This document shows, piece by piece, positions 51,100-53,966 of a stretch of DNA of 64,000 bases; position 1 is the first letter of the stretch; every line of letters begins with the position of its first letter. The notes below the pieces were generated by a model, which saw only the letters and a list, made by a program, of their open reading frames with translations, searched no databases and was not told the DNA's origin. A program made the translations under genes and the position numbers. The DNA lies in the NCBI RefSeq assembly GCF_017348835.2, contig NZ_CP071375.1; one strand, written 5' to 3'. Source of the DNA: Escherichia coli (GTDB taxonomy: Bacteria; Pseudomonadota; Gammaproteobacteria; Enterobacterales; Enterobacteriaceae).

Positions 51100-51500
51100 C
51101 CGATTAGTTTCTCCACAAAACAGAGAAGAACACCTGTGGTGGCCGCCGCCCGGATGGATTGGGTTATGAGCCCGTCGTCCGGTGATGCTCTTCTCTGTTT
51201 TGTAAAAAGGACGGTACCAGCCGGAAGCAAGGGTACAAGCTGGTACCGCCAGGACTACACACAGCATAAAGTTGTGGTGCCGGGTGCCCTCCCGGTGCCT
51301 GGCGAAGGTTGCACACCAGGCGGGTGGGTATCCACAGAAGGTCGACTGTCAGCCTCAACCTTAACCCGCGTGCGCTGAGCCGCATTCACCACAACGCTAA
51401 GGATTCTCTCTGGTTGAAAATACTTAGCTGTTATGTGCCTGCTTTTAGCCACATCAGGCGAGGTGGACCTGGTTATTCCCCAACAACAAGGATTCGGTTA
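51100..51500 (+). ncRNA. candidate large structured RNA / structured leader (unclassified)
   Basis: About 60% GC in sampled 60-nt blocks and no credible ORF. Perfect helices: 51115-51129/51189-51203 (15 bp), 51212-51221/51239-51248 (10 bp), 51271-51279/51387-51395 (9 bp), 51305-51311/51356-51362 (7 bp), 51396-51401/51423-51428 (6 bp). Helix 51276-51284/51291-51299 has two G-U pairs valid only in the + sense. Strand and boundaries are tentative. Confidence 0.3.
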
Positions 51501-51536: not shown

Positions 51537-52052
51537 GTGATCGCTGAATTAACGGCAGCAATGACGGCTATTCGTGAAACAGCCCAGATTGCAAAACTAA
51601 TGAACGAGGCAAAAACTCAAGCTGAAGTAAATGCGGCTATTGGTGAGCTGAACTCAAAGCTTGCGTCTATTCAGCGCGAATGCGTGTCTCTCGTTGAACT
51701 GGTGGGCTCTTATCAAGAAATAAATGCTTCTCTCAAAGCTAAAATTGCAGAATTCGAAAACTTTGAGGCTCAGACGGAAGGCTATATCCTTAACCAACTT
51801 GAGTCGGGTACTTTTGTATACTCGAAGGAGGTAATCGTGAACGGTGGCAGCATAACCATGCATCTTTGCCCAAAATGTTTTGGACAAAAGATAGTATCGA
51901 TACTTCAACCATTCCCGGTTAGCGAAGATGAGCTTTTTCATAAAAGCAGGTGCCTCCACTGTGAAAATAAGTTTCTGATGAATAAAAATCCGGATTACGT
52001 ATCGCCTCCATCCATTGAGGAGTTGTCCAGAAAACTTAACGGCAATCTGTAG
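51537..52052 (+). CDS. hypothetical coiled-coil + zinc-ribbon protein (171 aa), convergent moron between early-left operon and cI
   Basis: GTG 51537 lies 8 nt after an AAGAG SD. The N-terminal ~75 aa are heptad-like (AQIAKLMNEAKTQAEVNAAIGELNSKLASIQRE...LKAKIAEFENFE). The C-terminus carries CPKC-x24-CLHC. It has its own terminator at 52092-52115. The opposite-strand ORF has antisense-like composition. Confidence 0.6.
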   Translation: MIAELTAAMTAIRETAQIAKLMNEAKTQAEVNAAIGELNSKLASIQRECVSLVELVGSYQEINASLKAKIAEFENFEAQTEGYILNQLESGTFVYSKEVIVNGGSITMHLCPKCFGQKIVSILQPFPVSEDELFHKSRCLHCENKFLMNKNPDYVSPPSIEELSRKLNGNL

Positions 52053-52089: not shown

Positions 52090-52091
52090 TA

Positions 52092-52115
52092 AGCGTCCTG
52101 TAGGGCGCTTTTTTG
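52092..52115 (+). terminator. rho-independent terminator of the 171-aa gene
   Basis: agcgtcc-tgta-gggcgct hairpin (one U-G pair in the + sense) followed by T6. Confidence 0.7.
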
Positions 52116-52280
52116 TTGCTAACGAATCATCCTGGACTTCATATGCCCCAGGCGGCTACTTCGTGGGCGTCCTGCCTGTTCGTTTTTGACATTTACTGAC
52201 TGCTTACGACACATGCACCGTGTTGCAACCAGATTTTGTTGTAATCCTGTAGTTGGTCTGGAACAAAAGATAAAATTAAA

Positions 52281-52317
52281 TTGCGAGATATGCAAGCGAT
52301 ATTTGCGAGGTATGCAA
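52281..52317. promoter_or_regulatory. OL: two 15-bp repressor operators (pL region)
   Basis: TTGCGAGATATGCAA (52281-52295) and TTGCGAGGTATGCAA (52303-52317), with starts 22 bp apart. The same word family occurs in the cI-cro intergenic region. Confidence 0.6.
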
Positions 52318-52330
52318 ATTTATAGGTAGT

Positions 52331-52351
52331 AAAAAGCCACCTTTCGGTGGC
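52331..52351 (-). terminator. rho-independent terminator downstream of cI
   Basis: gccacc-tttc-ggtggc hairpin followed in the minus sense by T5, 20 nt after the cI stop. Confidence 0.7.
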
Positions 52352-52371
52352 CGATGGATGGGATATTGAGG

Positions 52372-53064
52372 TTAATTATGTCTCTTAAGGGTTTGCGACT
52401 GACTGATTAAGACCTTTCCAAAGACCATGAATCGGTGTTCGTTTTCGCTAGTAATTCCCCATTCACGGTAAATCTGGTTATCAGAAATCACCAGCAGTTT
52501 GTCAGGAATCATTTGAAGTCTTTTAACGTATATTTTGTCATCAAAACCAAAGACATATATACCATCACCATCAAACTGATTGATGCTGACATCAACGAAG
52601 ATGAGATCTCCTGGCTCAATGGTTGGACACATACTGTCCCCACGAACGTTGATAACTTTGATGTGATTGGCTGGTCGTCCGCCGAACATTGATACAGCAT
52701 TATCAGTTCTGTATTCGATGGCATGAATCACATCAATGACATCACCGCCCTGGATAAGGCCATTTCCCGCACTGGCACTGATATCCAGCATTTCAATACG
52801 GAACACATCCTTCACCTGCGCAACATCCTCATTATTACTGTTTTTATATACAGTATTACTTTTGTGGGCAGAGGTAAAGAGATCAGCAATATCAACACCT
52901 AAGCTCTTGGCAATATTACTCAGTGTTTGTTCGGTAAATTGTTTTTGCTTACCCGTTTCTAAGCGCGAGATGTTCGCCGCATCTACTCCTATTGCTTCAG
53001 CGAGATCGGCGATTTTCATGTTCTTCGCTTGGCGAAGTTGTCTGACTCGGTTTCCTATGTTCAT
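52372..53064 (-). CDS. CI-like prophage repressor (HTH_XRE + S24 LexA-like peptidase)
   Basis: 230 aa. N-terminal XRE HTH (IGNRVRQLRQAKNMKIADLAEAIGVDAANISRLETGK). C-terminal S24 motifs GDSM (nucleophile Ser) and YVKRL (Lys). Confidence 0.88.
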   Translation of the reverse strand: MNIGNRVRQLRQAKNMKIADLAEAIGVDAANISRLETGKQKQFTEQTLSNIAKSLGVDIADLFTSAHKSNTVYKNSNNEDVAQVKDVFRIEMLDISASAGNGLIQGGDVIDVIHAIEYRTDNAVSMFGGRPANHIKVINVRGDSMCPTIEPGDLIFVDVSINQFDGDGIYVFGFDDKIYVKRLQMIPDKLLVISDNQIYREWGITSENEHRFMVFGKVLISQSQTLKRHN

Positions 53065-53084
53065 GCGTTTATTACATTTCTTTA

Positions 53085-53147
53085 TTGCGTGATAAGCAAA
53101 TCAACTTGCGCAAAATAATTGCGTGAAATAACATGCATAACGCGCAA
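53085..53147. promoter_or_regulatory. OR: operator cluster between cI and cro (pRM/pR region)
   Basis: TTGCGTGATAAGCAA (53085-53099, +) and TTGCGCGTTATGCAT (53133-53147, -), plus TTGCG half-sites at 53106 and 53119. Same family as OL. Confidence 0.6.
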
Positions 53148-53161
53148 TATTTGGAGGGCAT

Positions 53162-53422
53162 ATGCAATCACCATTACGAAATGTGCGTAAGGCGCATGGT
53201 TTCACTTTGCAGCATGTTGCTGCGGGTGTTCAAGTCAATCCAGCGACGTTGAGTCGTATTGAGAGGCTGGAGCAGATTCCATCTATCGAGCTTGCAGAAC
53301 GTTTAGCCAATTTTTTTAAGGGTGAAGTCAGCGAAATGCAGATTCTTTATCCGGCACGTTTTCAATCTAGCCAAAACCAGAATGGGTTTAAACCACAGGA
53401 ACAGGAGGTGAACCGTGGGTAA
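53162..53422 (+). CDS. Cro/YdaS-like HTH antirepressor-type regulator (86 aa)
   Basis: Divergent from cI with a GGAGGG SD. XRE-type HTH (HGFTLQHVAAGVQVNPATLSRIERLEQIPS). Confidence 0.8.
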   Translation: MQSPLRNVRKAHGFTLQHVAAGVQVNPATLSRIERLEQIPSIELAERLANFFKGEVSEMQILYPARFQSSQNQNGFKPQEQEVNRG

Positions 53423-53966
53423 GCATCACTGGAAAGTAGAAAAACAGCCTGAGTGTTACGTGAAAGCTGTCAGAAAAACTATCGCAGCGTTGCCGGGGGG
53501 GTACGCTGAAGCTGCTGACTGGCTGGATGTAACAGAGAACGCATTATTTAACCGCCTTCGTGCCGATGGCGATCAGATTTTCCCGCTGGGATGGGCAATG
53601 ATTTTGCAACGTGCTGGTGGAACTCACTTCATTGCTGACGCTGTGGCGCAGTCTGCAAATGGCGTCTTTGTGTCTCTTCCTGATGTCGAGGATGTGGACA
53701 ACGCCGATATCAACCAACGCCTGCTGGAAGTCATTGAACAGATCGGCAGTTATTCAAAACAGATTCGTTCAGCAATTGAAGACGGTGTAGTGGAACCGCA
53801 TGAGAAGACAGCAATTAACGATGAGCTGTACCTCTCAATTTCGAAGCTGCAGGAGCATGCAGCACTGGTCTACAAAATCTTTTGCGTTTCAGAAAGTAGT
53901 GACGCCCGCGAGTGTGCAGCTCCGGGCGCCGTGGCGTGTCGTGACTGTGGAGAAACTAACGCATGA
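53415..53966 (+). CDS. YdaT/CII-like regulatory protein (183 aa)
   Basis: Overlaps the cro stop. Its position and sequence style recall Rac YdaT-type CII analogues. Family call is from memory. Confidence 0.6.

Follow-up and report, generated by a model that had tools for sequence, protein, structure and literature searches.

We describe here a family of 15-bp dyad sites on both sides of the repressor gene cI in an immunity module of Escherichia coli (assembly GCF_017348835.2, contig NZ_CP071375.1), located in a stretch of 64,000 nucleotides that is referred to below as the window. Comparison of these sites among related prophages makes it very probable that they are the operators of a lambdoid immunity switch and are bound by CI, and presumably also by Cro. 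An earlier note on this DNA had pointed to four such 15-mers, two downstream of cI at the left operator (OL) and two between cI and cro at the right operator (OR), as a shared operator family that defines the immunity specificity. All four are present exactly where they had been placed: the OL pair lies beyond the cI stop (52372) and its terminator (52335–52352), and the OR pair lies between the starts of cI (53064) and cro (53162).

Genes, sites and their conservation

The genes and sites of the module are given below, with scores in bits from the matrix described in the text that follows.

52372–53064, minus strand: cI repressor gene, 230 amino acids
53162–53422, plus strand: cro, 86 amino acids, HTH_3, divergent from cI; labelled Cro in the SfII record
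53415–53966, plus strand: CII-like open reading frame (ORF; Phage_CP76; PHROG CII-like family)
52335–52352, minus strand: intrinsic terminator of cI, invariant in 47 distinct sequences with identical CI; SfII has a terminator annotated at the same place
52281–52295, unstranded: OL1, TTGCGAGATATGCAA; 19.1 bits, the best in the window; at this position in 260 of 266 loci
52303–52317, unstranded: OL2, TTGCGAGGTATGCAA; 14.0 bits; starts 22 bp from the start of OL1
53085–53099, unstranded: OR site A (OR3-like), TTGCGTGATAAGCAA; 14.3 bits; at +20 from the cI ATG in 264 of 266 loci
53106–53120, unstranded: central OR site B (OR2-like), TTGCGCAAAATAATT; at +41 from the cI ATG; left half TTGCG, right half missing (TAATT)
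53119–53123, plus strand: extra TTGCG half-site, confined to the clades of the window and of mEp460 and not kept in those of Salmonella, Klebsiella and Eeyore
53133–53147, unstranded: OR site D (OR1-like), ATGCATAACGCGCAA, the reverse complement of TTGCGCGTTATGCAT; 17.8 bits; at +68 in 263 of 266 loci
53183–53197, unstranded: site E, GTGCGTAAGGCGCAT, in cro codons 8–12 and 50 bp to the right of D; 11.6 bits, fifth-best in the window

The gene types are those of a lambdoid switch, with a divergent pair formed by a repressor gene and a small cro gene, both encoding helix-turn-helix (HTH) proteins, followed by a cII-like gene as third in the lambda order. Pfam assigned to CI an N-terminal Cro/C1 HTH domain (HTH_3/HTH_26) and a C-terminal Peptidase_S24 domain (residues 104–218), and the protein falls in a repressor PHROG. 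Reading of its translation located Ala99–Gly100, Ser144 (in GDSM) and Lys181 (in VKRL), which correspond to a cleavage site and catalytic pair of the LexA/lambda type; CI thus has the Ala–Gly site and Ser/Lys dyad from which RecA-stimulated self-cleavage would be predicted. A search of the PDB gave no close structure for CI or Cro, the nearest structures for CI being only remote. Positions 52121–53450 are 99.4% identical to the Shigella phage SfII (KC736978), whose genes are annotated cI, cro and cII and whose CI is 100% identical to that of the window. The same stretch is ~90% identical in mEp460, two Stx2a phages (including Stx2a_1447), 1720a-02 and phiSTEC1575-Stx2k, and the same sites occur in SfII and in each of these relatives that is named here. 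The module is present in 1039 of 5426 complete E. coli genomes (~1 in 5). Its operators are not annotated in the records of SfII or its relatives, though cI, cro and the terminator are, and no description of them was found in the literature searched (exact sites, motif, SfII and mEp460).

Our comparative set comprised 304 loci with 107 distinct CI proteins (67–100% identity) from prophages of E. coli, Shigella, Salmonella and Klebsiella; positions and architecture of the sites were counted over 266 distinct loci. An unbiased search of non-redundant intergenic sequences (66 OL and 35 OR representatives), covering every dyad of a 4-mer, a gap and its reverse complement, returned TTGC-N7-GCAA as the top dyad at OL (66/66) and as the joint top dyad at OR (35/35), in agreement with the proposal that one operator family is shared by the two regions. 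Such a family, with members in the cI–cro interval and also beyond the other end of cI, is what characterizes a lambdoid switch. Outside the clade of the window the consensus is the perfect palindrome TTGCG-N5-CGCAA, from which each site in the window departs by one or two bases. The consensus drawn up in the earlier note, TTGCG-N5-(A/T)(A/T)GCA(A/T), was thus right in its TTGC/GCAA ends, while for the family as a whole it has to give way to this palindrome. The TTGCG and GCAA ends are invariant, with changed centres and spacers, in relatives of ~90% identity and likewise at 67–83% identity. In prophages whose CI is identical, the half-sites do not change, and operator centres and spacer are free to vary. 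Conservation in phages with the same CI had been set beforehand as a test of the proposal, and the motif is indeed kept both in the CI-identical prophages and in relatives.

We then scored the window with a matrix that was built from the other clades only and was therefore out-of-sample. The four sites took ranks 1–4 in the 64-kb window, and five of the six matches of at least 8 bits fell within 917 nucleotides (nt) around cI (binomial P = 3.6e-9 for this given span). Shuffled sequence gave single matches of up to 17 bits. Over the whole window TTGC-N7-GCAA was not enriched (6 matches against 3.3 expected, with 12 of 100 shuffles equal), and the degenerate consensus of the note had 5 matches against 2.7 expected. 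The whole-window pattern is therefore not significant, and the argument is one from placement and conservation only.

The link to immunity specificity is supported by heteroimmune relatives. A matrix scan detected none of these sites in SfV, which shares homologous flanks and has a different cI and cro; in the equivalent regions SfV has repeats of its own that contain GGTAC. No such sites were found in a phage with a 43%-identical CI. From one heteroimmune phage to another, the sites, cI and cro change together as a unit, and the operator family tracks immunity type, as had been suggested. The recognition-helix region of CI, (A/G)AN(I/V)SR(L/V/M)ETGKQK, is essentially constant over 42 variants of the N-terminal domain and in this matches the constant half-site. 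As half-site and recognition helix are common to CIs down to 67% identity, the specificity class would extend beyond this one CI. In SfII, cI and Cro are reported to show very limited identity to their SfIV counterparts, in a paper that mentions operator and promoter only generally for lambdoid switches (PMC3851460).

The layout of the sites is fixed in some respects and flexible in others. OL has exactly two sites in 260 of the 266 loci (98%), consistent with the remark in the earlier note that only two are clear. Their 22-bp phasing is correct for the window and typical, but it is not a fixed property of the family, in which the spacing ranges over 21–24 bp (21, 22, 23 and 24 bp in 1, 96, 113 and 19 distinct arrangements, respectively). 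At OR, site D, found in 263 of the 266 loci, is always 48 bp from A. Central site B had been described as degenerate and proved to be so: its right half is missing in the window, and a dyad of at least 10 bits is present in just 76 of the 266 loci, the window not among them, with a median score of -7.5 bits. Its left half is held in an invariant octamer, TTGCGCAA (53106–53113), that is found in 34 of 35 OR representatives, and some clades complete the dyad with a second half-site, CGCCA or CGTAA. The expectation that the layout differs from the 3+3 arrangement of lambda was borne out; there are two sites at OL, two strong sites and one weak site at OR, and one further site inside cro, and three full operators per side were not found.

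Two other candidates for a central OR operator were considered. The everted palindrome CGCAA-N5-TTGCG (53109–53123), at the exact midpoint of A and D, was rejected; it has the wrong half-site orientation for the same dimer, and the Salmonella, Klebsiella and Eeyore clades lack its TTGCG at 53119. A site that may be read in abutting position at 53099–53113, AATCAACTTGCGCAA, is a less likely candidate, being without the invariant T at position 2.

Two side observations concern OL. One locus from IMG/VR with an identical CI (L028) has a 22-bp deletion, equivalent to 52294–52315 of the window, that fuses OL1 and OL2 into one site, which is the expected outcome of recombination between direct repeats. 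In the window, GATAT occurs three times at exact 11-bp steps within 52287–52313, first in the centre of OL1, then in the spacer and lastly, here as GGTAT, in the centre of OL2.

A dyad within cro, putative promoters and a proposed mechanism

Site E is a fifth conserved operator-like dyad, absent from the list in the earlier note. It occurs at +118 relative to the cI ATG in 233 of the 266 loci, and several other clades have TTGCG-N5-CGCAA in perfect form at these codons. Codon usage was examined in up to 86 distinct cro alleles. Leu8 is TTG in 70/70, while TTG makes up 29% of Leu codons elsewhere in cro and Leu5 uses five codons; Arg9 is CGN in 86/86, with Arg6 being AGR in 58/86; and Ser11 is TCG in 69/69, with TCG forming 10% of Ser codons elsewhere in cro. 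Amino-acid replacements at these codons retain xTG and xCG. This pattern of codons is a clear indication that site E is held at the nucleotide level against synonymous alternatives.

At codon 2 of cro (53165–53167), 85 of 86 distinct alleles encode Gln2 by CAA and none by CAG, and ATGCAA mimics the right half-site of the operator. The corresponding left half is the cro Shine–Dalgarno sequence GGAGG (53153–53157), and the CAA codon is probably a matter of start-codon context rather than an operator.

Candidate leftward (PL), rightward (PR) and repressor-maintenance (PRM) promoters were placed as follows.

52290–52295 (reverse complement) and 52267–52272, minus strand: putative PL, -35 TTGCAT, N17, -10 TATCTT; the -35 is the right half of OL1
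53106–53111 and 53129–53134, plus strand: putative PR, -35 TTGCGC, N17, -10 TAACAT; the -35 is the left half of site B
53094–53099 (reverse complement) and 53071–53076, minus strand: putative PRM, -35 TTGCTT, N17, -10 TGTAAT; the -35 is the right half of site A

An operator half-site would double as the -35 element in each of the three, and their hexamers are kept across the family. The window, mEp460, phi7.2 and Eeyore clades all have TTGCNN-N17-TATCTT; the PR -10 pattern TAA-N-AT is conserved across the family; and the PRM -10 (ATTACA on the plus strand) is invariant in 35/35 OR representatives. With this putative PRM -10 ending ~7 nt ahead of the cI start codon, the message of cI would probably be leaderless or nearly so, and no Shine–Dalgarno sequence precedes the ATG. 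A rightward pair from a relaxed scan, GTGAAA-17-AATATT, scored slightly better and was dropped; its start would fall inside the cro ribosome-binding site and it is not conserved in the family.

We infer the working of the switch, from the identity of the binding protein to the order in which the sites fill, cooperativity, looping between OL and OR and the promoter hexamers, along the following lines. Dimers of CI, and presumably also of Cro, would recognise the 15-bp dyad TTGCG-N5-CGCAA. OL1 would lie over the -35 and spacer of PL, with OL2 22 bp upstream, and two bound dimers would shut this promoter. Site D would reach over the end of the -10 of PR, the cro promoter, and over the start point expected there, and the half-site of B would lie over the PR -35 and would probably require cooperative help. 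Site A, over the -35 of a weak PRM, could limit CI synthesis at high CI. Site E would be ~50 bp into the PR transcript and would most likely contribute extra repression, either by looping with D or by acting as a roadblock.

Alternative explanations and known switches

Several points weigh against an interpretation of these sites as operators of a CI-controlled switch. The family loci share descent, so the conservation counts do not represent independent events. PL, PR and PRM are weak, with 7–8 of 12 consensus matches (7/12 for the -35 and -10 of PL) and a G at -11 in PRM, and a promoter scan of the window called none of the three. The central OR site in the window is only a half-site. The first minus-strand gene after PL is ~1.2 kb off, with a plus-strand ORF between, and the literature searched gave no binding, footprint, transcription-start or immunity data for the module. 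Finally, site E might be an mRNA hairpin instead of an operator; this is disfavoured, as its arms are fixed to the operator half-site sequence and do not covary freely.

Among other explanations for the sites as a whole, it is unlikely that the main protein bound to the dyads is Cro or another regulator of phage or host origin, with CI recognising something else. Cro is also an HTH_3 protein encoded beside the sites, a site within cro would suit autoregulation, and the assignment of the sites to CI is itself based on sequence; however, the unbiased search found no other repeated dyad common to OL and OR, and the sites travel with cI and cro as a block between heteroimmune phages. In characterised lambdoid switches CI and Cro share operators, and by that precedent binding of Cro would be an addition rather than an alternative. 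BLAST detected no similarity between Cro and the N-terminal domain of CI, a result that neither favours nor disfavours binding by Cro. The host regulators PurR (CGCAA/TTGCG everted, with a central CG) and CytR (TTGCA) use similar words and were set aside, since the spacing and centre do not fit.

A role for the OL pair other than as a promoter operator, whether as a distal anchor for looping to OR or as a relic duplication, is very unlikely. Such a role would be in keeping with the 1.2-kb gap, occupied by an opposite-strand ORF, before the first leftward gene and with the weakness of the PL hexamers. Conversely, leftward genes begin within ~80–230 nt of the cI stop in relatives such as Eeyore and phi7.2, TTGCNN-N17-TATCTT is conserved across clades, a conserved structured RNA just downstream on the leftward strand implies transcription, and both OL sites are kept in 98% of loci. 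We find it scarcely credible that the resemblance between sites is due to chance, or that they are promoter -35 elements (TTGCxx being similar to TTGACA) and not protein-binding dyads. The whole-window counts and the random single matches given above, together with the coincidence of three half-sites with putative -35 hexamers, fit this explanation, but it fails to account for the clustering around cI, the GCAA halves, the fixed N7, the conservation of site E where no promoter is needed and ends that stay constant inside a hypervariable stretch.

With its sites interpreted as CI operators, the module is an ordinary lambda-style switch with a somewhat unusual layout. As in lambda, cI and cro are divergent, CI combines an HTH domain with a LexA-like cleavage domain, cI is flanked on either side by dyad operators over what would be the early promoters, the outer OR sites would lie over the PR start and over PRM (with a cI mRNA that is probably leaderless here) and the middle OR site is weak and probably dependent on cooperativity. 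Unlike lambda, the sites are 15 bp rather than 17 bp long, OL has two sites rather than three, the central OR site of the window is a half-site, an extra site lies inside cro and no N gene was recognised in this module. There are also no rex genes, and for this reason OL and OR are ~850 bp apart and not 2.3 kb.

In operator layout there is a likeness to phage 933W, which has rotationally symmetric 15-bp sites with poorly conserved centres and five natural operators (10 half-sites) (PMC3317979). Both phages have 15-bp sites with two at OL, and the five operators of 933W are consistent with three at OR and two at OL. The half-site differs, with 933W having the consensus G, A, A, C at positions 2–5 (PMC3317979), as do the degenerate OR centre and site E of the present module; no intragenic site is reported for 933W in that paper. 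HK022 offers a parallel for site E. An extra operator ~300 bp downstream of OR is described as contributing to immunity in HK022 (Carlson & Little 1993, as cited in PMC8053113), and looping between OL and OR, which are ~700 bp apart, has been demonstrated for HK022 CI (PMC8053113). The window is similar in having an additional site downstream of PR, here an operator-like dyad, and an OL–OR distance short enough to suit looping. The extra site of the window is, however, 50 bp from the PR-proximal operator, in cro codons 8–12, as against ~300 bp, and the HK022 region contained one chance-level matrix match only.

Variable positions, neighbouring elements and implications

Fine-scale variation was analysed in 61 loci whose CI is identical to that of the window, which reduced to 47 distinct sequences of 1.24 kb. 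Nucleotide diversity among them was 0.001–0.005 in cI, cro, OR and the left flank (0.004 at cI third positions). It was much higher in the following two stretches, among others.

52296–52302, unstranded: OL1–OL2 spacer, the most variable stretch of the module, diversity 0.18
53158–53160, plus strand: three hypervariable bases between the cro Shine–Dalgarno sequence and ATG, per-column diversity 0.26–0.50, with two to three alleles each

OL2 has a diversity of 0.11, mostly in its centre (52308–52310 being hypervariable) with the ends kept, and the mean over 53148–53161 is 0.10. Within the OL block (52281–52334: spacer, OL2 centre and flank to the terminator) 31 of 54 positions segregate, against 27 of 1167 elsewhere, an excess with P = 2e-16 even if the columns free to vary are restricted to non-coding ones and third positions. 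Ten OL haplotypes occur on each of the two commonest identical 1,167-nt backbones with the contact half-sites intact, and variants at 53158–53160 also occur on otherwise identical backbones. The changes affect the uncontacted centre of OL2, the OL1–OL2 spacer, including its length, and the three bases before the cro ATG. A weaker tendency of the same kind is seen in four other groups of identical CI. The C at 52297, in the spacer, is the sole difference of the window from six complete E. coli genomes over 52230–53200 (971 nt), and it is rare in the IMG/VR set (1 of 47 sequences).

From these data we suggest, tentatively and as the less probable outcome, that OL and the cro leader are recurrent targets of mutation or selection within one immunity type; the cause of the OL hot spot could be either recurrent selection or local hypermutation. 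Adenine-specific mutagenesis of the kind associated with diversity-generating retroelements was rejected, the variable bases including G, A and T. The most variable OL bases lie just 5' of ATAT, and the trio before the cro ATG has the same context (NNN-TATGCAA) as the OL2 trio.

Three other elements lie to the left of the OL sites.

52118–52186, minus strand: structured RNA of 69 nt in the PL leader, with two helices and a 24-nt core, AGGCAGGACGCCCACGAAGUAGCC, that is invariant from E. coli to Aeromonas phages
51537–52052, plus strand: ORF of 171 amino acids (PHROG 1244, unknown function) between PL and the leftward genes, with its own terminator at 52091–52110
51201–51425, minus strand: sub-threshold Rfam match to the small RNA STnc100 (36.5 bits against a gathering threshold of 47, E = 1e-5)

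The leader RNA is well supported by its pairing, with 97.9% of cells paired, abundant compensatory change in the two helices and 10 of 16 pairs changing on both sides; none of 500 shuffles equalled this, and slid controls were 23–40% paired. It is found, unannotated, downstream of unrelated repressor genes in temperate phages of E. coli, Shigella, Salmonella, Yersinia, Pantoea, Pectobacterium and Aeromonas, and it may be a leader or antitermination element. It matched no Rfam family. HK022 uses put RNAs, and homology to these was considered and dropped, neither blastn nor a covariance model of the leader RNA having given a match to HK022. The 171-amino-acid ORF encodes a C-terminal pair of CxxC motifs and had no PADLOC match; SfII has different DNA at this position, and the ORF looks like an accessory ('moron') gene. 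The STnc100-like match sits between this plus-strand ORF and the first leftward gene, and mEp460-like prophages are reported to carry a small RNA, sRNA-17 (PMC7719688).

The module occurs also in Shigella serotype-converting phages and in some Stx2 phages, for which the sites provide a direct handle on induction. Knowledge of the sites predicts homoimmune prophages across E. coli, Shigella, Salmonella and Klebsiella. If selection underlies the variation at OL and in the cro leader, repressor occupancy at PL and translation of Cro would undergo continual retuning in natural prophages while the contact bases stay fixed, which would amount to evolvable tuning of the switch or to an arms race at a level below that of immunity type. 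An anti-virulence safeguard may be provided by the conserved operator-like site inside cro. Finally, natural variants with two OL sites, a half-site at OR2 and an intragenic site probe how much of the lambda design a stable switch needs.

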